NCBI GenBank assembly: GCA_963807605.1
Contig: CAWECG010000004.1
Span: 448,001 to 512,000, forward strand
Length of the DNA: 64,000 bases
Reading direction: 5' to 3'
Origin: Candidatus Bathyarchaeota archaeon
Lineage (GTDB): Archaea > Thermoproteota > Bathyarchaeia > 40CM-2-53-6 > RBG-13-38-9
Part shown: positions 9,525-24,959 of the stretch, piece by piece
How the letters are laid out: every line of letters starts with the position of its first letter
Position numbering within the stretch: the stretch's first letter is position 1
Translations under genes and position numbers: made by a program
Notes under the pieces: generated by a model
Told to the model about the DNA's origin: nothing
Database searches by the model: none
The model's input: the letters and a program-made list of their open reading frames with translations, nothing else

Positions 9525-11252
9525 TCACGCCATGAAGTACCTTTGGGCCAAGGCTAGCTCTTTCGCCGGTTCTACTGTAGCAATCTCTCCGTCAAGTCTT
9601 ACCTCGTAGGTTTCAGGGTCTACTGTTATCTTGGGAGTACTATCGTTCCACACCATGTTCTTCTTGCCTATGTTCCGGCAGTTCTTTACTGGCAATATGA
9701 CCTTTTCGAGTCCTAACTTTTGAGGCACTCCAAGCTCTGCGGCTGCTTTTGATATGAATGTGAAGCTAGTTTTCTTTACTGCCCGACCGAGTGCACCGAA
9801 CATTGGTCTGTAGTAAACCGGCTCCGGAGTTGGTAGGGACGCATTCGGATCTCCCATTATAGACCAAGCTATGAATCCTCCCTTGAAGATCATCTTTGGT
9901 TTCGCTGCAAAGAAGGGCGCCTGATACATTACTATATCTGCGTACTTACCGACTTCAAGGGAGCCGAGATATTCTGCAACACCATGAGTGATTGCTGGGT
10001 TTATTGTTGTCTTTGCGATGTACCGCTTAGCTCTAAAGTTGTCGTTCTCCGGGGAGTCTTCCTTCAGCTTGCCGGTCATCTTTTTCATCTTGTCCGCAGT
10101 CTGCCAGCAACGGATTACTACCTCCCCAATCCTACCCATAGCTTGACTGTCTGCGGAGTACATGCTCAAGACACCTTTATCATGCAGAACATCCTCTGCA
10201 GCGATTGTTTCGGCTCTGATTCTGGATTCTGCAAAGGCGACATCCTCTGATACCGCAGGATTCAGGTGATGACAGAACATCAACATGTCCAGATGCTCAT
10301 CCACTGTATTGACAGTATAAGGTCTTGTCGGGTTTGTTGAAGAAGGAAGTACGTTTGGCTCTCCTGCTATCTTCATAATATCGGGCGCGTGACCTCCGCC
10401 AGCTCCCTCTGTGTGGTAGGTGTGTATTGTTCTACCGTCGATCGCATTTATCGTGTCCTCGACGTAACCGCATTCGTTAATCGAGTCGGTGTGTATCGCC
10501 ACTTGTGTATCCGTGAGGTCCGCTGCTCTAAGCGAAGCGTCTATAACTGCGGCGGTTGTCCCCCAATCCTCATGGTCTTTAAGACCGCATGCTCCAGCCT
10601 CTATCTGTTCCAGCTGAGTGGCGAGTGTTGGGTGTGAGTCGTTGCCTTTGCCCAGGAAGCCCCAGTTCATCGGTGTATCCTCTACAGCTTCCAACATTCT
10701 ATGCATGTTAAAGACGCCAGGAGTACATGTAGTAGCGTTGGTACCGTCTGCAGGCCCGGTTCCTCCACCGATCATATTGCATATTCCATTACTTATCGCG
10801 TCGACGTATTGCTGTGGGCTTATCATGTGAACGTGTGTATCAAAATGACCTGGAGTGCAGATTGTATGTTCCCCGGCGGTGGCTTCCGTACATGCCGAGA
10901 CTACCATGTGAGGATCAACGCCATCCATTACATTGGGATTGCCGCCTTTTCCAATCCCTGCTATTTTGCCGTCTTTTATCCCGATATCGGCCTTCAGGAT
11001 TCCCAGGATAGGATCTAGTATGATGGAATTGGTGATTATGAAATCCAAAGCCCCATTCGCATTTGTAACTCCTGGCGTTTGGCCTAGTCCATCTCTTATT
11101 GTCTTGCCTCCACCGAAGACCTCCTCGTCTCCGTGGGTTATCAGATCTTTCTCTATCTCGATGAGTAGGTCTGTGTCACCTAGTCTTACTTTATCTCCGG
11201 TTGTGGGCCCATAAAGATCACTGTACTGTTTTCTTGTTAGTTTCAAAACCAT
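9525..11252 (-). CDS. ureC: urease subunit alpha
   Basis: [51 protein letters not shown]. Confidence 0.98.
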
Positions 11253-11258
11253 TTTTCT

Positions 11259-11675
11259 TCACGCTCCTTTGAAGTCTAGTTTCTTCGCCTTTTCAAGAGC
11301 GGCGGACTTGACTGTACTTGACAGTAGACTGCCCATCGTTAGTGCATTGAATCCGTAGACAACCTTCTTGCCGCCTAATTCGCAGATCTCAACTTCTTTT
11401 GAGTCACCCGGCTCAAACCTTACAGCTGTTCCTGCCGGGATATTCAGTCTATACCCGAATGTTTGTCCTCTTGGGAAATCGAGTTTCTTGTTTACCTCGA
11501 AGAAATGCGTGTGGGAGCCTATCTGTATTGGCCTGTCACCGGTGTTCTTCACCGTAATCTTAATGGTCTTTCTATCTTTGTTGCAGATGACTTCTCCGGG
11601 AGCTAGAACGTATTCGCCCGGTAGGACGTGTGTTGGGTGTTCCTCTTTCCTTTTTTCTTCTTTCTGCTTACTCAG
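11259..11675 (-). CDS. ureB: urease subunit beta (probable CTG start at 11675)
   Basis: PGEY..., NTGDRPIQIGSHTHFFEVN, RLNIPAGTAVRFEPG; frame open upstream of track start; AGGTGA SD. Confidence 0.93.
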   Translation of the reverse strand: MSKQKEEKRKEEHPTHVLPGEYVLAPGEVICNKDRKTIKITVKNTGDRPIQIGSHTHFFEVNKKLDFPRGQTFGYRLNIPAGTAVRFEPGDSKEVEICELGGKKVVYGFNALTMGSLLSSTVKSAALEKAKKLDFKGA

Positions 11676-11686
11676 ATTTCATCACC

Positions 11687-11989
11687 TTACTGAATAGGAT
11701 CGTGTACGGTCACAAGTTTGGTGCCGTCTGGGAACGTGCCTTCTACTTGTACAGTGTGTATTAGCTCAGAGACACCGGACATTACATCGCCTCTTCTTAG
11801 TACGGTTCTTGCGGATTGCATCAGTTCTGCAACGCCTTTTCCCTCACGAGCGCCCTCGACTATGTAGCTTGCAATGAAAGCGACCGCTTCCGGGTGATTC
11901 AGCTTTATTCCTTTCTTCTTGCGTTGTTCTGCTATTTGTGCCGCTGTCCAAATCATCATTTTTTCAATTTCTCTTGGAGCCAACATCAT
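11687..11989 (-). CDS. ureA: urease subunit gamma
   Basis: [31 protein letters not shown]. Confidence 0.97.
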
Positions 11990-12138
11990 TTTATTTTCTC
12001 TCTCCTAATTTTATTTTCTCTCTCCTATTTTCATCCTGACTTTTACGCTCACCTTTCATTTGGAAATTTCTTCTCGATTCGAAATCATCTCAGTATTCTT
12101 TTGTAGTTTGTATCCATCTCCTCATGGCGCAGCACTTG

Positions 12139-13194
12139 TCAGGGCCTAGCCCATCCGATGCCAGCTGGGATATTCAACGCGAACGGAGCTGCTAGCAGAA
12201 ATGCCCACGCCGTAAAGACGAACGGTCCAGTCAAAGCTGGAAGCCCCCATTTGCTAAAGAAGTTCTGGAAGGCAGGCATCGTAACCAAGCTGCAGACTAT
12301 TGTTGCAAATACCGCGTACAGGAAGGTTTGCCAAGTCAACGGCAGGAAACTTGTAAGCGCGATCATGACCAGGACTTGGTTGAATCCGTGTACGCCAACC
12401 CTAATTTCTGAAGTCGGAAGCCTCGCCATTATTGCCAGAGCTGCTCCTATCGCGGATCCTATCAGTGCCATCAAACCAGCCAACCAAAGCGTAGATGTCG
12501 GATCCCACCCACTAGTGAAGGCATTCGTGAATAATCGGTCTGGAGGAAAGAGCTCGAAAGAAAGGGTTAGGCCCACAACCCAGAATATTCCCGTCTTCCA
12601 ATTTTCAACAAATGTGACTTGGGAAACCCCATTGAGAACTGCCTTCGTGAATTCTTTTGCCGTCCATTTGAATCCAGCTATCACTGTATCAGCTGGCGCA
12701 CTTGGCCATATGTCATGGCCGTATCTTTTGGTTGCATACATTAGAAGCCATGTTGAGAATATGAAAGATGAAGTAAAGCCCGGAATAGCCCAACCTTTTC
12801 CACCTAAGACGAACCAATCACCCATGACGTGAGCCATCGTCATCCAGACTACCGCAGTGAATGCAGCGCCAAATAATGAAAGTACAAGTGTTGCTCTGTT
12901 GGTCTTTGCGAATGGCCCAGACCAGAATGCCATCCCAGTCAAGATGGAGTTAAATCCGAAAAGACCAAAAGTAACCAGACCATAGGGAGCACCCAATATT
13001 AACGCAACTGCTGCGCCTATTAATCCAGAAACCACCATCATTACACCTGCTTTTCGAGAGGCGATCAAAACTCCAATTAGGATGAGCAGACCAGTAAGTG
13101 CTGAACTAATCAGAGGTACTTCTGAAATCCCATTGAAGAGAATGTAGATGAAATCCAATATTGGATTTCCAGTTACAAAACCTGGTGCCGACAA
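12139..13194 (-). CDS. urea transporter (UT/Yut family)
   Basis: duplicated NGISEV/NGVSQV, GLFGFN/GVHGFN and GLPALTGPF motifs; first gene of the ure cluster. Confidence 0.88.
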   Translation of the reverse strand: MSAPGFVTGNPILDFIYILFNGISEVPLISSALTGLLILIGVLIASRKAGVMMVVSGLIGAAVALILGAPYGLVTFGLFGFNSILTGMAFWSGPFAKTNRATLVLSLFGAAFTAVVWMTMAHVMGDWFVLGGKGWAIPGFTSSFIFSTWLLMYATKRYGHDIWPSAPADTVIAGFKWTAKEFTKAVLNGVSQVTFVENWKTGIFWVVGLTLSFELFPPDRLFTNAFTSGWDPTSTLWLAGLMALIGSAIGAALAIMARLPTSEIRVGVHGFNQVLVMIALTSFLPLTWQTFLYAVFATIVCSLVTMPAFQNFFSKWGLPALTGPFVFTAWAFLLAAPFALNIPAGIGWARP

Positions 13195-13875: not shown

Positions 13876-13896
13876 CAAGTCCCGGCGGCCGCACCA
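13876..13896 (+). repeat. tRNA-Gly 3'-end fragment (att-like scar)
   Basis: CAAGT-CCCGG-CGGCCGC-A-CCA; no 5' tRNA half; weaker copy at 13281-13299. Confidence 0.75.
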
Positions 13897-14041
13897 CTCT
13901 AGCAATGAATAGATACAACTTGCCCCCATACTTGCTATTGCTTGCAGGTTTTCATATCGTTCAGAATGGAGAGTTGGACTATGGGTGGCTCTGTAGGCAA
14001 ATTAGCGCGCTTGTCCTGTCAGTTTTTTTGTCAGTCCCACT

Positions 14042-14650
14042 TCAATTTTTTGTGATGTCAAGAAAATATTCATAGATTCTCAAATCTTCAGTGAGCTCAG
14101 GGTGGAAACAGGTTCCTATCATGTTGCCCTGTTGGACAGCAACCGTTCTGCCCTCTAGTTTGCTGAGTACCTTTACGCCTGAGCCAATTTCGACGACTGT
14201 TGGAGCTCTTATGAAGACTCCTCTAAATCTCTCTCCCAAGATGGGAATGTCTAGGTCTGCCTCGAATGATTCACGTTGCCTTCCGAAGGCATTTCTCTCA
14301 ACCGTTACATCCATCAACCCTAAAGTCGTTTGAGCAACCTCCCCCACATTCCGATCGTGGACTTTCTTAGCCAGCATTATTAGCCCTGCGCATGTGCCCA
14401 TTATGGGCATGTCTTCATACGCGCGTTTCTGGAGGGTTTTGGTCACATCGTTAAGGTTGGCGAGTATGCCTATGACTGTGCTCTCTCCGCCTGGAATTAT
14501 TAGTGCGTCTGCTCTTTGAATATCGGTGGATCCTTTGACTGTTTCAACTATACCTTTGAATCCTTTTCGATCCATCGCGTGCCTAGCCGCTTTTACGTGT
14601 TCTTCGATGTCGCCTTGAAATCCTAAGATGCCTACAGTTATATCGCTCAA
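14042..14650 (-). CDS. pdxT: PLP synthase glutaminase subunit
   Basis: [35 protein letters not shown]. Confidence 0.97.
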
Positions 14651-15612
14651 CCACTGCCACGCTCCTGCATTCTCAACTCCAGAGTCTGGAGGTCCATACC
14701 GATCATGGACTTCTTCTCGTCGACCATGCTCTGGGCCTCAGCAACTTTGGATGGATCGTCATGGAATGTTACGGCCAAGACTATTGAGCGTGCACGCTCA
14801 GCAGGATCCTCCGATTTGAATATTCCTGAGCCAACGAAGACCCCGTCACATCCCAGATTCATCATTAAAGCAGCGTCTGCAGGTGTAGCAATCCCTCCGG
14901 CTGCGAAATTAACCACAGGTAACCTTCCAAGCCTTCCAGTCTCGTTCACTAGCTCGTAGGAAGCCCTCAACTCCCTCGCGATCTTAATCAGTTCCTGCGT
15001 GTCTTGTACCTCGTAGATAGATTTGATCCGTCTGATCTCGTTGTTAACAATCCTAGTATGTTTGACAGCTTCTGCAACATTTCCAGTGCCAGGTTCACCT
15101 TTTATCCTGATCATGGCTGCACCTTCTTCTATCCGACGAAATGCTTCTCCAAGATCTCTGGCACCGCACACAAACGGCGTTGTGAAATCCCATTTCCATA
15201 TGTGCCTCTCCTCATCTGCTGGGGTTAAAACCTCGGATTCGTCTATCATATCCACGCCAGCAGTCTCTAAGATCTTTGCTTCCCAAGTGTGGCCTATGCG
15301 GCATTTCGCCATAACCGGGATCGTAACGTTATCCAATATCTCCTTGATCGCGTTGAGGCTGGCGGTTCTGGCTACACCTCCAGATTTCCTTACATCGTAG
15401 GGTAGCTTATCCAGAACCATGACGGCTACCGCCCCAGCCTTCTCAGCAATCCTAGCCTGTTCCACATTTGTGACATCCATTATCACACCGTGCTTAAGCA
15501 TATGGGCGAAGCCACGTTTCAGAAGGGTGCTCCCTTGAACGGTATCAGCCCCCTCGATCCTTGCGTTGTGTACTCCTTTAGGCTGATGTATAGTTCCAGC
15601 TATTGAAATCAT
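14647..15612 (-). CDS. pdxS: PLP synthase lyase subunit
   Basis: [47 protein letters not shown]. Confidence 0.98.
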
Positions 15613-15636
15613 GGTATATAAGAGGGGGAAGAGATT

Positions 15637-15674
15637 ATATAAGTTTGAACCTATATATCAGTTCGGACTTATAT
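15637..15674. promoter_or_regulatory. candidate operator over the divergent pdxS / thrC-HTH promoters
   Basis: inverted repeat ATATAAGTTTGAAC-N10-GTTCGGACTTATAT (12/14), containing TATA-like boxes. Confidence 0.6.
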
Positions 15675-17139
15675 GGTTCTGCTATGTTCAGATTGTGGCG
15701 TCAATTACGCGGACTCTGAGGCGCTCAGGGTCTGCCGAAGATGCGGGCAGCCTCTATCGGTAACCTATGACTACGACAAGATCAGGGAGACACTTAGCAT
15801 CAAAGAGATCTCCAAGAGACCTTTTCGGCTATGGAGGTATCTCGAACTGCTGCCCATCACAGAGGAGGCTCATGTGATCTCACTGGGCGAGGGCGGAACC
15901 TACCTGCATAGATGCGATAGGCTCGCCAAATCATTGAGGTTAAAGAAGCTATACTTGAAAAATGAGACCACCAACCCTACTGGCTCATTTATGGATCGGG
16001 GCGTAACGGTCACTGTCACCAAGGTTAAACAAACAGGAATCAGAACCGTCTGCTGTGCCCCAACAGGGAATCTTGGCTCCTCCCTAGCAGCCTACGCAGC
16101 CAAAGCAGATCTAGAATGTAGAGTCTTCATCTCACATGAGGTGGACCTTGGTAAGCTCTACCAGATGATAGCCTTCGGTGCCGATGTCCAGACCGCCAGA
16201 GACATAGACGATGCATATCAAAAGGCCACTAGGATCGCTGATAAGAGCTACTTGGTAACCCCAGAAGATCCATACCTCCTCGAGGGAGAGAAGACTATAG
16301 GATATGAAATATGTGAACAACTCGATTGGCACACACCAGACTTGATAGTAGTTCCAATGGGAAGCGGCGGAAACCTCTCAATGATCTGGAAGGGAATTCA
16401 GGAATTCCTCCAAATCGGCTTAATCCGGAATAGTCATGCAGCCATGGTCGGCATTCAGAGCTCAAGCCACTCACCGATAGTAGACGCCTTCAAGGGCGCT
16501 CGTAAACTAGAAAAATCCAAGGGAGAAGGAAGATCTTTAGCTGTTGACATAGCTGTCAAGAATCCCGCTCTTGGAGACGCAGCCTTGAAGGTGATAGAGG
16601 CCTCAAAAGGCATAGCAACAAGCGTCTCCGACAACGAGATTCTAGAAGCAACACGATTACTTGCAAAGACAGAAGGGATCTTCGCCGAACCTGCTGCAGG
16701 CTCCACAATTGCCGGGCTTACGAAACTGGTAGAGTCTGGAGAGGTGGCCAGAGACCAAGAGGTCGTCTGCATAATAACAGGCTCAGGGCTCAAAGACCCT
16801 TACACCGCCCGTAAGTTTGCAGATGAAATGAAGCGTACTCGCAAACTCGTAAACAGTATCGACGAAGGTAGGGATGTCAGGCTCGGCGGTACAAAAATGA
16901 ACATCCTCAAGATCCTTCAGAATAGAGAACTTTATGGTTATGGCATATGGAAGGAGCTGTTAACTTATCATTCGAAAAAAGTCACCATGCCAACAGTGTA
17001 TCAACATCTACAAGAGATGGAGATGCGGGGATTGCTCAAACGTACAAGAAGAGAGGAATCAGTGGGAAGACCAGACCGCTGGTATTACATCCTAACAGAG
17101 AGGGGCAGGGAGGCTCTAAAAGCCTTCAGCAGACTATAG
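15673..17139 (+). CDS. thrC: threonine synthase-like (fold type II PLP) domain with the catalytic Lys replaced by Met, fused to a C-terminal PadR-like winged HTH
   Basis: Zn ribbon, SLGEGGT, NPTGSFMDRG (normally FKDRG), GEKTIGYE, ITGSGLKD; YGYGIWKEL..TVYQHL..YYILTERG. Confidence 0.85.
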   Translation: MVLLCSDCGVNYADSEALRVCRRCGQPLSVTYDYDKIRETLSIKEISKRPFRLWRYLELLPITEEAHVISLGEGGTYLHRCDRLAKSLRLKKLYLKNETTNPTGSFMDRGVTVTVTKVKQTGIRTVCCAPTGNLGSSLAAYAAKADLECRVFISHEVDLGKLYQMIAFGADVQTARDIDDAYQKATRIADKSYLVTPEDPYLLEGEKTIGYEICEQLDWHTPDLIVVPMGSGGNLSMIWKGIQEFLQIGLIRNSHAAMVGIQSSSHSPIVDAFKGARKLEKSKGEGRSLAVDIAVKNPALGDAALKVIEASKGIATSVSDNEILEATRLLAKTEGIFAEPAAGSTIAGLTKLVESGEVARDQEVVCIITGSGLKDPYTARKFADEMKRTRKLVNSIDEGRDVRLGGTKMNILKILQNRELYGYGIWKELLTYHSKKVTMPTVYQHLQEMEMRGLLKRTRREESVGRPDRWYYILTERGREALKAFSRL

Positions 17140-17343
17140 CACCTGATCCAATAGAGAATATCGAGGGTCAGTATCACGTCGGGCCGCCCAAGGTCAGACA
17201 GCTCAGACTCAAATGTCGAATGTTATGTTATGAACCTCAATTTCAACCCAATTTCCTCAACAAAAATGCTCTGGGCCCGGTTCGAACATCAGAGGTATGA
17301 ACCCGCGTGAATTTTGAGCCCAAATCTAGCACCGTTAACGCAT

Positions 17344-17442
17344 CGAATCCCGTCGGGCTCGCCAACAATAATCGATAAAAATTGTGGCATAATAACGGCG
17401 ATTGTGGTCTACAGGCAATTCAGGTATTCGCACCTAATAAGG
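17344..17442 (+). repeat. direct repeat B, copy 1 (copy 2 at 24661-24759)
   Basis: 88/99 identity by manual alignment; weaker similarity extends ~60 bp upstream. Confidence 0.9.
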
Positions 17443-17854: not shown

Positions 17855-18700
17855 CTACGTGCTACCGTCTTCTGTTTCAGATCTTTTCGTATGCTGAAGG
17901 GTGGCCATCTTGAGGCGGGACGTCATTTTTCTCAGTTTCTCCGTTGTCCTAATGGGTGATCCATGATTCTGCTCAATCACTTTGACAAACACGCTTCCAA
18001 CGATAGCCCCATCAGCTCCAGCTGCCACAATCTCTCTGATCTGTTCAGGGGTTGATATTCCAAAGCCGGTTGCAAGTGGAATCTCGTCCCTTATGTAGGA
18101 ACGAAACTCCTTAACTAACCTCACAGTCGAATCTGGGAGCCTTCTCCTGGCTCCAGTTACACCAAAGAGTGAGACTAAGTATAGAAAACCTGATGTGTAT
18201 TTCAGGATTTCCTGCAGTCTTTCCGCTGTGGTGGAGGGTGCTGCGAGAAATATTGTGTCGATCTTGGCTTCATCAGCGATCCTCTTGTAAGTGTCTGCCT
18301 CTTCAAAGGGCAGATCAGGGATTACTATCCCGTCAACCCCATTCATCTTTGCTAGTTCCAAGAAATTCTTCAGTCCGCTTTTGTAGATTATGTTATAGTA
18401 GGTCAGAAGTACGACGGGGATCCTGTGTTTTTCCTTGATCTTCTTTACGATCTTCATGACCAGTGGGGGCTTGGTTCCGGCTTTCAATGCTCTGACTGTT
18501 GCAGCTTGAATCGTCGGCCCATCCGCAATTGGATCAGAGAATGGGATGCCAAGTTCAATTACGTCTGCACCTCCTTCAACTAGAGCATCCACAATTCTAG
18601 GAGTGAATTTTGGAGATGGATCGCCCGCGGTCACGTACGTGATCAGCGCGGCCTCATTCCTCTCGCTCAGATCTCTGAAGGTTTCTGCAATAATGGTCAA
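17855..18700 (-). CDS. trpA: tryptophan synthase alpha
   Basis: [36 protein letters not shown]. Confidence 0.97.
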
Positions 18701-19896
18701 AGTCTTCGCCCCATTCTTCCAGCCACAACCTCCACATCCTTGTCACCTCTTCCTGAGATTGTGACCACGACACCTTCTTCGCTGTTCATCTTGGGTACTA
18801 TCTTCTTCATGTGTGCTAGCGCATGGCATGTCTCCAAAGCTGGAATAATCCCCTCTGTCCTGGAAAGCTCACAGAAGGCTTCCAGGGCCTCTTTGTCTGT
18901 GGCTGTGGCATACTCGACACGCCCTATACTGTGAAGATAGGAGTGTTCTGGGCCGACTGCTGGGTAGTCGAGGCCTGCAGAGACACTGTGGGTTGGCTGT
19001 ACCTGGCCATAGGCGTCTTGGAGAAGATAGGTTAGCATGCCATGGAATACCCCCTCTGACCCTGCACAGATTGAGGCTGCATGCTTTCCAGTCTTAATTC
19101 CTCTTCCTCCGGCCTCGACGCCATACATCTTTACGTTGTCATCATTAAGGAAGTGGTGGAATGTTCCTATGGCGTTGCTGCCGCCTCCAACGCATGCGAA
19201 GAGTGCGCTAGGTAACTTCTTCTCCTTCAGCAGGATCTGTTCCTTGATCTCCTTTCCAATGATACTCTGGAGGTCTCTTACGATCATTGGGTAGGGGTGA
19301 GGTCCTACCGCTGATCCAATCAAGTAGTATGTTGTCTGGGGGTTGGTCGTCCAGTCTCGGAGGGCCTCGTTTATCGCATCCTTCAGTGTCCTTGAACCCG
19401 AATCCACAGGGTGGACCTTCGCCCCGAGTAGCTCCATGCGGAAGACATTGAGCCTCTGCCTCTTCATATCCTCGGTTCCCATGTAGATCTCCGCATCCAG
19501 ACCTAGGGTAGCGCATGCTATCGCCGTGGCCACTCCATGCTGGCCTGCGCCGGTCTCCGCGATAACCCTCTTCTTGTTCATCCTCTTGGCCAGGAGAGCT
19601 TGACCTAGTGTGTTGTTGATCTTGTGGGCTCCTCCGTGAGCCAGATCTTCCCGTTTCAGATAGATCCTTGGGCCCCCGTACCTGCTGGATAGATTCTTGG
19701 CATAGTAGAGGGGTGTCGGTCTGCCAGCGAACTCTCTTAGATAATGGTCGAGCTGGTTCTTGAAATCAAGGTCCTCCTTGAAGCTAAGGTATGCATCTTC
19801 CAGCTCGCTGAGCACAGACATCAGAGTCTCAGGTACAAAGCGTCCTCCATACTTACCGAATTTGCCCTTGAACAAATTGGCCTGTTGCAGGTTCAA
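18697..19896 (-). CDS. trpB: tryptophan synthase beta (TrpB1)
   Basis: [39 protein letters not shown]. Confidence 0.98.
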
Positions 19897-20537
19897 TATG
19901 CAGCCTCCCTAGCTTTCCTGATGAACTCGGTCATCTTCTCAGGATCCTTAACCCTAGGACGCACCTCGACCCCCGTTGAGACATCGACCCCGTATGGCCT
20001 AACCGTACTTATCGCGTGGCCGACATTCTCTGGAGTGAGCCCTCCGGCAAGAATCATGGGTGCCGGGTATATTGCGTCCCTGATTTTTCTGCTTAAACTC
20101 CAGTCGTGTACAAGGCCTGTCCCTCCACGACCAGTCTGATCATGGGTGTCTACCAATACGGCTTGAGAGAATCTCGAGTATGACAGAGCTTGTTCGATCG
20201 CATCAAGCGCTCCAACATCAACAGCTACTATTACCTTGACTCTTGATGCCAAACCATTCCGGCGATACGATTCAGAAGCCACTCCATGAAGTTGTAGGAA
20301 TTTTGGAGCCAGCTCTTGGCAGATCTCCGCGGTTCTTTTTATTCCGTTGAAGACCGTCACTACCACGCTGTCCACGTTGCTTGGCAATCGGTCTATCAGG
20401 TTCTTTGCTTCTCTGAAAGAGAGATTTCTCGGTGATGCGGCTATGTCGACAATGAATCCTATGGAATCAACACCGGCCTGGACAGCTATATCCAAATCTT
20501 CCTGTTGAGTTACTCCGCAGATCTTTACTTTCACCAT
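19893..20537 (-). CDS. trpF: phosphoribosylanthranilate isomerase
   Basis: [32 protein letters not shown]. Confidence 0.96.
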
Positions 20538-20543
20538 CTGGAT

Positions 20544-21317
20544 CTATGCCTCCGCCAGCTCCCGGACTTTCTCTTCAGGGTTGAGAGCTGACATGATGGA
20601 TGATCCAACTAGGAAAGCACTCGCTCCACACTCTCTGAGGAAACGAACATGATCTCCGGTGTCGATTCCACTCTCACTCACGACAACATGGTTGCTTGGG
20701 TGGCGTGAACTCAATATCTTCCTTGTGACATCCAGATCTGTCTGCAGGGTCGAGAGATCTCGATTGTTTATTCCAATGAGGTCAGCCTCGGTGCTGAGAG
20801 CTCTTTCGAACTCTTCTGTGGTATGGGCCTCAAGCAGAATCTCCATACCTCTGTCATGCGCTAGATCTATCGTTCCTTCAAGATCGTTATCGCATAGGTT
20901 TCTCTCGAAGAGAGATTCGATCAGCAGTATCGCTTCAGCTCCGATCCTGGATGCGGCTTCAACCTGGATTGGATCGACGATTATGTCTTTCATGAGCCGC
21001 GGAAGGCCACATCTACGCGCGGTTATGAGGTATTCAGTTCTGCCTCTGAAGTGTTTCGGCTCGGTCAAGATCGATAAGCCGACTGCACCACCCAGTTTCA
21101 TCATCGACGCCAAAGCTTCAACGTTAATGTTCTGAGTGATGATCCCCTTCGAGGGTGAGGCGGGTTTGATCTCAGCTATTACTGGATTCCTCTTGCATTT
21201 GAGAATCGACTCTTTGAGCCCCATGCCGACTCTCTCATGAGATTGCTCAATATGATAGTAGCCTTCCGCAACGGTCTCTCTGGCATCCCTTGCCAGGATA
21301 TCTAGATAGTCACGCAG
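20544..21317 (-). CDS. trpC: indole-3-glycerol phosphate synthase (probable CTG start at 21317)
   Basis: IAEIKPASPS, SILTEP, MKD, GINNRDL, ESGI; frame open 31 codons upstream of the track ATG. Confidence 0.94.
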   Translation of the reverse strand: MRDYLDILARDARETVAEGYYHIEQSHERVGMGLKESILKCKRNPVIAEIKPASPSKGIITQNINVEALASMMKLGGAVGLSILTEPKHFRGRTEYLITARRCGLPRLMKDIIVDPIQVEAASRIGAEAILLIESLFERNLCDNDLEGTIDLAHDRGMEILLEAHTTEEFERALSTEADLIGINNRDLSTLQTDLDVTRKILSSRHPSNHVVVSESGIDTGDHVRFLRECGASAFLVGSSIMSALNPEEKVRELAEA

Positions 21318-22368
21318 TTATCTCCAGCTCCTCAAGTCTCGACAGGTTGCCGCCAGTGAACTCGATCAGCGAGACGAGTTTTCCGTAAGCTGCACCGCTC
21401 TCAATTGACTGGGCAGCGAGCTCGAGGCCTTCTTCGAAGCTTTCTGCTTTCCCTCCGACTACGATGCCTGCGGCTGCATTGAGTAGTACTATGGCTTGCT
21501 TGGGATCCCTGTGGGTACAGTGGCCTCTCATAATCCTAAGAGTCGCCACCGCGCTCTCATGGGTAGTTGAGCATCGCAGCGCCTCGGGTTTGGCTTTCTC
21601 TATACCAAAGTCCTCTGGCTCGATCGTGAAGCTGCATATCTCATCCTCTCTTAACCAAGAGATCTTGGTCCCTCCGACTGTGGAGACCTCGTCTAAGCCG
21701 TCGAGGCCGTGCACAACCATTGCTTGCTTGACACCAAGGTTTGAAAGTACGCTCGCTAGTGGTTCGGTCAAGGATTCTTGGTATACACCCAGAAGCTGGG
21801 CTGTTACGTTGGCCGGATTGGTCAGAGGACCCAGAATGTTGAACACTGTTCTGATCCCGATCTGACTCCTAGGGTTGACTGCATACTTCATTGCTGGGTG
21901 AAATGCTGGAGCGAACATGAATCCAATCCCAACCTCCTCTATTGCTTTCTCCACCGTCTCTGTTGGTATGTTGAGCCTGAGCCCCAGGGTCTCCAGAACG
22001 TCGGCGCTTCCACATCGGCTTGTCACAGACCGGTTCCCATGCTTTGCAACAGGTATGCCTGCGCCAGCGATGACAAAGGCGGACACTGTACTGATGTTGA
22101 ATGTCTTGACCTGATCGCCGCCTGTTCCACATGTGTCGACTAGGTTGCCTGCAACTTCAGGGTTAATCCGGTGGCAACAGCTTCTCATTACTCTTGCAAG
22201 TGATGTGATCTCGTCTACGGTCTCACCCTTCATCCTGAGGGCTGTCAGGAATGCGGCGATCTGTGCGTCTGTGGCTTTGCCCTCCATGATCTCCTGCATG
22301 ACCTCCCGTGCCTCTTTCTGTGTCAGGTCTCTTCGCTCAACGAGTTTTGCAATGGCTTCCTTAATCGT
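21310..22368 (-). CDS. trpD: anthranilate phosphoribosyltransferase (probable ACG start at 22368)
   Basis: DTCGTGGD, KHGNRS, GSADVLE, LGPLTNP, DGLDE; upstream (M)IKEAIAKLV. Confidence 0.95.
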   Translation of the reverse strand, partial: TIKEAIAKLVERRDLTQKEAREVMQEIMEGKATDAQIAAFLTALRMKGETVDEITSLARVMRSCCHRINPEVAGNLVDTCGTGGDQVKTFNISTVSAFVIAGAGIPVAKHGNRSVTSRCGSADVLETLGLRLNIPTETVEKAIEEVGIGFMFAPAFHPAMKYAVNPRSQIGIRTVFNILGPLTNPANVTAQLLGVYQESLTEPLASVLSNLGVKQAMVVHGLDGLDEVSTVGGTKISWLREDEICSFTIEPEDFGIEKAKPEALRCSTTHESAVATLRIMRGHCTHRDPKQAIVLLNAAAGIVVGGKAESFEEGLELAAQSIESGAAYGKLVSLIEFTGGNLSRLEELEITA

Positions 22369-22954
22369 CTCGGTAACCTCCGTCTAGGAAGTTTCTGAGA
22401 ATTCTTTTTCCTTGGTTGGTCAGGATAGACTCCGGATGGAACTGTAGGCCCTCGATTGGGTACTTGGTGTGGCGAATACCCATTATTTCGCAATCATCAA
22501 GAGAGTAGGCTGTTGCCTTCAAACAGTCTGGGAGCGAGAACAGATCAGCTACGAGGGAGTGGTATCTGGTGGCCTCAAGTGGATTTGGTGTGTCTCGGAA
22601 GATCCCTTTTCCGTCATGTTTTATCAGGCTGGTCTTGCCGTGCATCAGCCTCTGTGCTCTGATGATCTTTCCTCCAAAGGCATGTACGATCCCTTGATGC
22701 CCAAGGCAGATACCTAGTGTTGGTATGTGTCTGCTTAGATCTCTCAGGATGGCCAAGCAGTTGCCGAAGTATCGGGTTTCTGCTGGTGTTCCAGGTCCAG
22801 GGGAGAGAATCACTCTGTCGGGGTTGAGTCGTCTTGCCTCTCCTAGAGTCACCGTGTTGTTTCTGTGGACAACTGGTGTTCCGCCAAGTTCACCGACATA
22901 CTGTGCGATGTTGTATACGAATGAGTCATAGTTGTCTATTATCAGGACTTTCAA
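22361..22954 (-). CDS. trpG: anthranilate synthase component II
   Basis: IDNYDSF, SPGPG, GICLGHQ, RYHSL, QFHPES. Confidence 0.97.
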   Translation of the reverse strand: MKVLIIDNYDSFVYNIAQYVGELGGTPVVHRNNTVTLGEARRLNPDRVILSPGPGTPAETRYFGNCLAILRDLSRHIPTLGICLGHQGIVHAFGGKIIRAQRLMHGKTSLIKHDGKGIFRDTPNPLEATRYHSLVADLFSLPDCLKATAYSLDDCEIMGIRHTKYPIEGLQFHPESILTNQGKRILRNFLDGGYRDD

Positions 22955-24373
22955 ATCATTTCACCCGCCTTCTCCAAGGCCTTCATGAGAGCCGCGGCTT
23001 TTTGTTCTGTTTCAAACCATTCTTTCTCGGGGTCTGAGTCAGCCACTATCCCTGCGCCTACTTGGATTGAGGCTTTATTCTGATGGGTTGTCAGGGTACG
23101 GATGGTTATGGCAAAGTCTGCGTTTCCGTTGTTCGAGAAGTATCCGACGGCGCCCGCGTATGGTCCTCTTCTTGTGGGTTCAAGTTCCTCAATTATCTCC
23201 ATGGCTCTGACTTTCGGTGCTCCTGAGACAGTTCCGGCGGGGAGCATGGCTTTGAGTGCGTCAAAGCAATCCATGTCTGGACGTATCTTTCCGACGACTC
23301 TGGAGACGATGTGTTGGACATGACTGTATTGGTGTACAGTCATGAATTCAGGTGTGTGGACTGACCCAAACTCAGCTATTCTGCCGATGTCGTTCCGTGC
23401 CAGGTCTACAAGCATCACATGTTCAGCCCGCTCCTTCGGGTCTGAAAGCAACTCTTCAGCCAAGATCTGGTTCTTGGCTTGATCGTCGGTTCTTGGTCTG
23501 GTCCCGGCTATCGGATAGGTCTCCACGAGACCATTTTCAACTCTCACAAGCATCTCAGGACTTGAACCTACGACCTGTCTTTCTCCCATTTTGAGAAAAT
23601 ACATGTATGGGGATGGGTTGATGTTTCTCAACGTTCTGTAGAAGTTGATGAGGCTGCCCTCGAAGTTGAAGTTATAACGTTTTGAAAGGACTGCCTGGAA
23701 GATGTCTCCCGAAGAGATGTAGTTCTTGGCTTTCAAAACAGCCTCTTGAAAGTCGTCTTTTGAAGTATTCGATGTTGGGGTGGTGTATCTGAAGGGTTCT
23801 GGATCGGTGATGGCCTCTTGGATTCTGCTTTTGATCTCTGCCAATCGATCCCTGTTTTGAAAGTAGTAGTATGCTGTTCTGTTGATGTGATCGAAGACTA
23901 TCCCATCGTCAAAGAACGCCATCTCGAGATCTGGGAACTTGAGATCATCGGTGGCGGATTCCGGAATCTTTTCCCAGTACCTTACCGCATCATACGAGAT
24001 GTATCCTACGGCACCACCTGCGAGACGAAACTGGTCGAATGTTAAATGATTCCTCTGAATCTCACTTCGCATGATGTCAAGTGGATTGTGCGTTTCTTGG
24101 CATTCGTCTCCTGATGTCATGCTAGTGGTTCTTGCCACATGTCCTTTGACAGAGATCACTAGGTGTGGGTCAAACCCTATGAACGAGAACTTCGCCAGTT
24201 TTTCCGGGCCTTCAACTGACTCTAGAAGATATGTGTACCCGCTGTCTCCCTCAAGTCTTGCAAAGATATCTGCTGGCGTGTCGGTGTAGGGGATCTCTTC
24301 AAGATTGACCTTAGGCGATTTTCTGGAAGTTGGCTCCTCTAGTCTTGAGGTTTGTCCAAAGGCGATACCCCAT
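22951..24373 (-). CDS. trpE: anthranilate synthase component I; 5' ATG (24373) is one base out of frame
   Basis: LLESVEG motif upstream of the track start; NPSPY, SSPE, PIAGT, EHVMLVDLARND, GTVSGAPK, GAGIVADS. Confidence 0.93.
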
Positions 24374-24660: not shown

Positions 24661-24782
24661 CGAACCCCGTCGGGCCCGCCAACGGTAATCGATACAACTT
24701 GCGGCATAATAACGGTCATTGTGGTCTGTAGGCAATTCAGGTATTCGCACCTAATAAGGCTCGAGTACCCGCGGGCCCGCCA
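24661..24782 (+). repeat. array 3: two Lys/Arg-like tRNA 3'-end fragments enclosing direct repeat B copy 2
   Basis: CGAACCCCGTCGGGCCCGCCA (24661-24681) and TCGAGTACCCGCGGGCCCGCCA (24761-24782). Confidence 0.8.
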
Positions 24783-24959
24783 TGATGACGTTCCTAGTGC
24801 TAATTTGTGTGAGGAAACATCACGCGGTGTACCGACGGGATCACCACTTCGAGGTTTCGATGTATATCTGAAGTGGGATTTACGGGGCTTGTCACAAAAT
24901 TGGGGGGTAGAATTCCAGAGAATACTCGACGGGGGAACTGCCAACAACTTTGGATCAGG

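Follow-up and report, generated by a model that had tools for sequence, protein, structure and literature searches.

A window of 64,000 nucleotides from a Candidatus Bathyarchaeota archaeon (GenBank assembly GCA_963807605.1, contig CAWECG010000004.1, positions 448,001 to 512,000; genome G000, 2.65 Mb and 94% complete) carries a gene for a 488-aa protein that stands head-to-head with pdxS and pdxT, the genes for pyridoxal 5'-phosphate (PLP) synthase. With a probability of about 0.8, we consider this protein to be a vitamin B6-responsive archaeal transcription factor, PdxR-like in action without being a member of the MocR family. Its architecture, its residue pattern, its gene linkage and the DNA element that it shares with its relatives follow directly from the computational analysis presented here. 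An earlier note on this DNA had proposed a convergent analogue of PdxR built on a fold-type II domain, and this proposal gains support from the conserved loss of the catalytic lysine, the linkage to B6 genes and a shared element that follows both kinds of target. The genes concerned are the following.

14042..14650, minus strand: pdxT, glutaminase subunit of PLP synthase, predicted regulated gene (TIGR03800, 212.8 bits; cut-off 105.55)
14647..15612, minus strand: pdxS, lyase subunit of PLP synthase, predicted regulated gene (PRK04180, 463.8 bits; cut-off 395)
15673..17139, plus strand: regulator gene, 488 aa, with a Cys4 zinc ribbon, a lysine-less threonine synthase (ThrC, fold-type II) sensor domain, a linker helix and a PadR-type winged helix

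pdxT overlaps the stop codon of pdxS by 4 bp, and the start of pdxS is supported by a similar N-terminal extension in relatives. The gap between pdxS and the regulator gene spans 60 bp (15613-15672); both the coordinates and the curated pdxS and pdxT models thus agree with the head-to-head arrangement described earlier.

A threonine synthase fold fused to a PadR-type winged helix

Pfam recognizes a PALP domain at residues 69-370 of the regulator (E 3e-69) and a PadR domain at residues 411-483 (PF03551, 53.4 bits against a gathering score of 27, E 2.5e-14), the latter corresponding to the C-terminally fused winged helix-turn-helix (HTH) that had been noticed before. Features within the protein are listed below.

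15685..15744, plus strand: predicted CxxC...CxxC zinc ribbon (C5, C8, C21, C24), at least 90% conserved in the family
15991..15993, plus strand: Met107 (codon ATG), replacing the PLP Schiff-base lysine (Lys61 of Thermus thermophilus ThrC)
16546..16548, plus strand: Asp292, aligned with T. thermophilus Ala240; a family-specific acidic residue in the predicted PLP pocket
16903..17121, plus strand: PadR-type winged HTH, residues 411-483 (PF03551, and PadR relatives in the PDB at E 4e-7)

The zinc ribbon is an inheritance from the Zn-ribbon type of ThrC. The winged helix is strongly conserved, with Y443 and H445 invariant in the family. An AlphaFold model of the protein (mean predicted local distance difference test score, pLDDT, 86) comprises a ThrC body, a low-confidence helical linker (residues 371-402) and the winged helix, predicted as three helices and a beta-hairpin wing. 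Its top structural matches are bacterial ThrC proteins (Foldseek E 1e-30, about 37% identity; PDB 6CGQ, 2ZSJ, 1UIM and 2D1F). Prediction of a homodimer for the sensor domain (residues 1-400) gave a score of 0.92 against 0.00 for the best control, with contacts agreeing to at least 98% between runs and pLDDT of at least 89; the mark for this score is attained for 20 of 30 solved homodimers and for 1 of 23 monomers. Because ThrC dimers have already been solved, this model shows likeness only and may reflect memory.

The protein passes two models for ThrC, TIGR00260 (230.7; cut-off 167.1) and PRK08197 (314.7; cut-off 303). Its best full-length family match is NCBIfam PRK05638/NF004170 (E 1e-94, residues 4-485), which the HTH alone matches too; the score of 317.4 bits lies below the curated cut-off of 421.

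Loss of the Schiff-base lysine is a family trait

The Schiff-base motif reads NPTGSFMDRG, with the substitution of Lys by Met exactly where the earlier note had seen it, and the change of ASTGN to APTGN is found at residues 129-133. None of the 121 nearest homologues retains the lysine; they carry Ile (81), Leu (15), Val (14), Met (6), Thr (2), Asn (2) or Ser (1) instead. By comparison, it is kept in all 99 HTH-less ThrC domains of the comparison set. An independent assembly (locus L277, protein P0002, 96% identical) agrees in having Met at this position, a gap of 60 bp and pdxST. A private mutation or a sequencing error as the source of Met107 was rejected, given this assembly and the count of 0 out of 121.

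In the tree built from ThrC domains, proteins with a fused HTH group in a single clade (FastTree support 0.99), sister to the ordinary archaeal ThrC proteins. Within it, the lysine is replaced by a hydrophobic or small amino acid in subfamily A, which includes the Met107 protein and whose members are about 490 aa long (support only 0.79); the proteins of subfamily B, about 465 aa long, carry Arg (88%) or Lys (11%) there (support 1.0). HTH-fused members were found in Bathyarchaeia, other Thermoproteota and several Asgard groups. A search for related loci yielded mostly ordinary ThrC.

Some observations concern subfamily B (L130-L163, in genomes of the same class). It also lacks the substrate Arg and Asn, and its genes usually lie upstream of and co-directional with the same energy-coupling factor (ECF) transporter gene as is described below, or near it. 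Genome G130 has both subfamilies. One subfamily B protein, P0191 from Bathyarchaeota B26-2, is named 'transcriptional regulator' at NCBI; for all other homologues with a name, that name is threonine synthase.

Vitamin B6 genes are the recurrent divergent partners

Among 36 subfamily A loci, the regulator gene is divergent from a gene for an ECF S component (PF07155) in 22, from pdxS in 3 and from other genes in 11. Eight further loci that were looked up include five with a divergent PF07155 gene and one with a co-directional one. Linkage to B6 genes is hence conserved; pdxST, the partner for which the earlier note proposed a test, is in the minority, the commonest partner being a PdxU2/HmpT-type ECF transporter. 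The sole PDB match of the S component is 4HZU (HmpT/PdxU2; E 2.5e-11), and Glu41, Tyr120, Asn140 and Gln143 of HmpT are identical in the aligned archaeal transporter. HmpT/PdxU2 is reported to bind pyridoxamine (PMC4860826), and PdxU and PdxU2 are both listed under PF07155 (PMC9997740).

In 29 of the 31 regulator-bearing genomes whose regulator does not adjoin pdxS, pdxS was not found, which places the regulator beside an importer in apparent auxotrophs and beside pdxST in prototrophs. On a maximum-likelihood tree of 30 chosen rows, the six pdxS-linked regulators account for four label changes, that is, four separate branches; a single clade of pdxS-linked regulators is rejected (approximately unbiased test, p 8e-14), and one of the six is a near twin of an ECF-linked regulator. 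The only PF07155-like gene found in G000 is distant (E 1e-10) and lacks a site of the kind described below.

Two further kinds of gene recur at these loci. A PurM/AIRS-family gene (PF00586, PF02769) adjoins the ECF gene, in varying orientation, in L115, L117, L130, L134, L138, L142, L146, L197, L198, L200, L282 and L283, being directly divergent from the regulator in L283. As the ThiL kinase belongs to the PurM/AIRS superfamily, this neighbour could be a B6 salvage kinase. An intact element at L119, L213 and L358 (G130 and a relative) faces a divergent gene for a membrane-anchored GNAT acetyltransferase, with an EamA-like gene next in line. The same two genes come after the ECF gene in L007, and on that account they may belong to the regulon.

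The pocket has lost substrate contacts and kept cofactor contacts

The alignment of 157 subfamily A and 21 sister ThrC sequences was mapped onto T. thermophilus ThrC, with division into substrate and PLP contacts according to what we take to be the functional roles of its residues. The substrate positions K61, S84, T88, N154, S155, R160 and N188 are 100% conserved in the sister ThrC proteins and lost or variable in subfamily A; the regulator itself has L134, T196, P197, L202 and S231 at the positions of T88, N154, S155, R160 and N188. By contrast, the cofactor positions F60, N87, G187, E287, T317 and G318 are 96-100% retained. The only invariant lysines of subfamily A are those that it has in common with ordinary ThrC, and no new family-specific one appears. 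At the position of Ala240, Ala is found in 100% of the sister proteins, and subfamily A has Asp (94%) or Glu (5%).

Judged by these residues, the regulator is a predicted dead enzyme with a retained PLP pocket, in which PLP or pyridoxamine 5'-phosphate (PMP) would be sensed non-covalently. Since the pocket has lost a positive charge and gained a negative one, an amine-bearing vitamer such as PMP would suit it, possibly through the Asp at the Ala240 position.

It is unlikely, in our estimation, that the protein is a transcription factor of the same genes answering to a different signal, be it an amino acid, a phospho-amino acid, a PLP-amino acid adduct or the thiamine precursor hydroxymethylpyrimidine (HMP). 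Such a signal would accord with the native ligand of the ThrC fold, a phospho-amino acid, with the invariance of K116 and with the first naming of HmpT as an HMP transporter (PMC4860826), but it is at odds with the decay of precisely the substrate-binding positions next to intact cofactor-binding ones, and no targets recur other than B6 synthesis and a B6-type importer.

A conserved element accompanies the regulator and its targets

The intergenic region holds an element that recurs 5' of subfamily A genes as WTATATAAG, 6 bp and CCTATATATAGG. Its parts in G000 are as follows.

15635..15643, no strand: box 1, TTATATAAG, left arm of a conserved 24-bp dyad; likely a two-way TATA box and possibly also a regulator half-site
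15650..15661, no strand: box 2, CCTATATATCAG, 6 bp from box 1; predicted operator core, family consensus CCYATATATRGG
15653..15676, no strand: weaker second 24-bp site, offset by 18 bp and spanning the regulator start codon; 13.3 bits, invariant in L277

A second site similar to the last of these occurs in G002 and G010. A third box at 15613-15622 was dropped, as it is not conserved in L277.

A matrix for the 24-bp element scores above 16 bits at 30 of the 36 subfamily A loci and at most 2.8 bits at 34 subfamily B loci; subfamily B may use another operator. In G000, which was outside the training set, 15635-15658 is the best 24-bp match of the whole genome (30.1 bits); the next best reaches 15.5, so that no second strong site points to a wider regulon there. 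The 12-mer of box 2 scores 15.1 bits, third-best in the genome. A blind scan of 301 genomes with an exact pattern matched 20, in 17 of them beside the regulator (8 newly found), compared with 2 genomes for a reversed control pattern. A blind metagenome scan returned 68 distinct sites, of which 57 face an ECF gene and 4 face pdxS (61 together); 62 face a regulator. Two of the four pdxS-facing sites have no regulator on their contig.

Where regulator and target lie apart, the element goes with the target: the best site of the genome precedes an ECF gene on a contig other than the regulator's in G002 and G010, and in G311 the regulator and an ECF gene preceded by a site are 2.4 kb apart. By itself, the 12-bp palindrome is found in G099 in front of the regulator and of an unlinked ECF gene, and in G205 in front of the ECF gene and of pdxS. 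At 10 bits or more, it lies before 7 of 12 unlinked ECF or pdxS targets in genomes carrying the regulator, against 0 of 29 where no regulator was found; its chance rate in G000 is about 0.003 per 150 bp. As a separate observation, locus L196 in G146 (370 contigs; pdxS present, no regulator found) has a decayed element of 4.7 bits at about 2207-2230 upstream of pdxS, and such decay is expected after loss of the regulator.

The two boxes appear to differ in function. Box 2 has conserved ends (CC in 18 of 22, GG in 14 of 22; the figures for box 1 are 1 and 2) and is more self-complementary (10.0/12 versus 6.4/12), which marks it as the likely operator core. Most start codons are found at 19-32 nt from box 1 towards the regulator and at about 17-19 nt or more towards the target, and at these distances box 1 fits a two-way TATA box with short leaders or none. 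The G after box 1 is invariant and the spacing between the boxes is fixed at 6 bp.

Could the element be nothing but the back-to-back TATA boxes of an old divergent promoter, with the protein binding elsewhere or serving mainly as a B6 storage protein or chaperone that stays beside B6 genes? Both boxes are TATA-like, box 1 stands at TATA distance from both start codons and some family members have lost the element. However, this account, which we rate as very improbable, leaves aside the CC...GG ends of box 2 and its fixed 6-bp spacing, its occurrence alone upstream of the regulator and the unlinked ECF gene in G099, the way in which it follows targets in trans and is absent from the controls, and the conservation of the winged helix.

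Several points weigh against a B6-responsive factor acting through this operator. Four family loci have neither the 24-bp element nor a palindrome upstream, and 5 of the 12 unlinked targets lack a strong palindrome, among them the ECF genes of the pdxST-linked genomes G022 and G091. Three of the seven palindrome positives were found through the motif itself, and counting gene-first cases only leaves 4 of 9. Where genomes are related they do not count as independent samples, and the control ECF genes include distant paralogues. No p-value is attached to the unlinked targets, as three positives are motif-derived and the genomes are related. The element being TATA-like, part of its conservation may be promoter conservation. 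Finally, the HmpT pocket residues His84 and Gln87 differ in the archaeal transporter.

The fusion does not track the threonine pathway

The check for a separate intact thrC that the earlier note proposed fails for G000: no lysine-bearing copy was found at 94% completeness. This does not rescue a role as enzyme; thrB (TIGR00191 over its cut-off) was likewise not found in G000, nor in G022 or G091. hom is present in G000 and was not found in G022 or G091, both of which retain the HTH-fused gene. A fourth relative, G078, has thrB adjoining an HTH-less thrC and no fusion, and three more distant fusion-bearing genomes have a separate lysine-bearing ThrC homologue. From this distribution, the fusion does not follow the threonine pathway, and the G000 organism may need external threonine or use another route.

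That the protein is still an enzyme to which a regulatory HTH has been fused, whether the threonine synthase of the genome or a different fold-type II enzyme, can scarcely be credited: it is the sole ThrC-like gene found in G000, where hom is present, and it exceeds the TIGR00260 and PRK08197 cut-offs, but its Schiff-base lysine is gone and no new invariant one replaces it, its substrate residues are lost, thrB (and in G022 and G091 also hom) was not found in genomes that retain the gene, and other carriers have a ThrC homologue with the lysine.

Proposed mechanism

The favoured reading, a B6-responsive transcription factor, would work as follows. A pseudoenzyme derived from ThrC, its catalysis lost and its PLP pocket kept, would act as a dimer and contact the palindrome at 15650-15661, and probably neighbouring half-sites too, through its PadR winged helices. 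A phosphorylated B6 vitamer (PLP or PMP), bound non-covalently, would alter DNA binding, such that pdxST is on when B6 is low and off when it is high. In genomes without pdxST, the same factor would control the B6 importer. DNA binding, the ligand and the choice between activation and repression are what we infer.

Archaeal activator sites usually lie upstream of the B recognition element (BRE) and TATA box, and repressor sites downstream of TATA (PMC5937170). The predicted operator is situated just upstream of the likely BRE/TATA of the target and downstream of the regulator's own TATA, which slightly favours PdxR-like logic. We give about an even chance to a mode in which the protein, when free of ligand, turns on pdxST and represses the regulator gene, B6 cancelling the activation. 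Nearly as likely, if clearly under even odds, is a B6-bound repressor that covers the TATA of box 1; protein contact with box 1, suggested by the fixed spacing and by the G that invariably follows this box, makes it plausible. In both modes B6 lowers pdxST output. The most specific version of the model, for which the odds seem to us to fall just short of even, is that B6 is read without a Schiff base, possibly as PMP through Asp292, that switching between half-sites at the two-way TATA activates the targets and represses the regulator, and that PdxR logic was invented a second time in this family, which is spread over TACK and Asgard archaea.

Genomic surroundings of the pdxST locus

One further feature takes in the whole locus.

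14017..17358, no strand: pdxT-pdxS-regulator block, 92.5% DNA identity to L277 over exactly this span, with differing flanks

Fragments resembling tRNA 3' ends flank the block at 13876-13896 and 17344-17364 and occur also at 24662-24790. Homology with L277 runs as far as 17358, a position within the right-hand fragment, and the block may accordingly be a cassette-like island. The neighbours of the module are urease subunits and a urea-transporter-like gene on one side and a trp operon on the other (9525-13194 and 17855-24159); genes for PLP synthesis thereby adjoin the PLP-dependent TrpB. A scan for sigma-70 promoters found 6 against 6.5 expected, an uninformative result for an archaeal host.

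Comparison with known systems

Neither a description of the ThrC-HTH family nor an archaeal B6 regulator was found in the literature, a search that left most subscription papers outside its reach; PMC11237513 mentions only a cysH-thrC fusion. The candidate regulator, with a predicted operator, targets and pocket residues, makes archaeal B6 homeostasis directly testable, and the operator lends regulon-level support to B6 as the substrate of the archaeal PF07155 transporter group. There is also a correction to be made to annotation: the family passes threonine synthase cut-offs and is mostly annotated as such, and for Bathyarchaeia and Asgard genomes, G000 among them, a metabolic model can include threonine synthesis in error.

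The closest relatives by descent are the ThrC enzymes of the Zn-ribbon type, the sister group in the tree, with which the regulator shares its fold, the predicted dimer and the PLP-contacting residues. Unlike them, it has lost the catalytic lysine and the substrate residues, has gained the Asp at Ala240 and a PadR HTH, and is linked to B6 rather than to threonine. The 'threonine synthase' family PRK05638/NF004170 (a 442-position model that includes the HTH) has the same ThrC+HTH architecture; its label is that of an enzyme and mentions no regulatory role. The winged helix passes the Pfam cut-off for PadR-like regulators (PF03551). Stand-alone PadR proteins dimerise and bind ligands by way of their C-terminal helix, whereas here an enzyme fold of 370 residues is the likely dimer and ligand module.

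The design principle of an enzyme domain joined to an HTH as a vitamin sensor is already known in archaea from ThiR (thiamine) and RbkR (riboflavin), in which an HTH is combined with an enzyme domain that senses a B vitamin and controls both its synthesis and ECF-type uptake. The vitamins, folds and operators are different, and RbkR is still an active kinase.

In its logic the protein most resembles PdxR, of the MocR subfamily of bacterial GntR regulators, in which a winged helix is likewise fused to a sensor derived from a PLP enzyme (PMC5320631). The apo form of PdxR activates pdxST and represses pdxR, PLP acting as an anti-activator, and MocR factors are reported to be absent from Archaea (PMC5320631). 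PdxR, too, is divergent from pdxST, has a regulon of pdxST and/or pdxU-type transport and an operator in the shared intergenic region. Its HTH is N-terminal and of the GntR type, and its sensor is an aminotransferase domain of fold type I that binds PLP through a lysine. The archaeal protein, in contrast, has a fold-type II ThrC domain without the lysine, a zinc ribbon and a C-terminal PadR HTH; no homology to PdxR was detected, and membership of the MocR family fails on the HTH and on the sensor domain alike. If the proposal is true, the two systems are a case of convergence, in which two unrelated PLP folds were recruited as sensors and fused to two different types of HTH.

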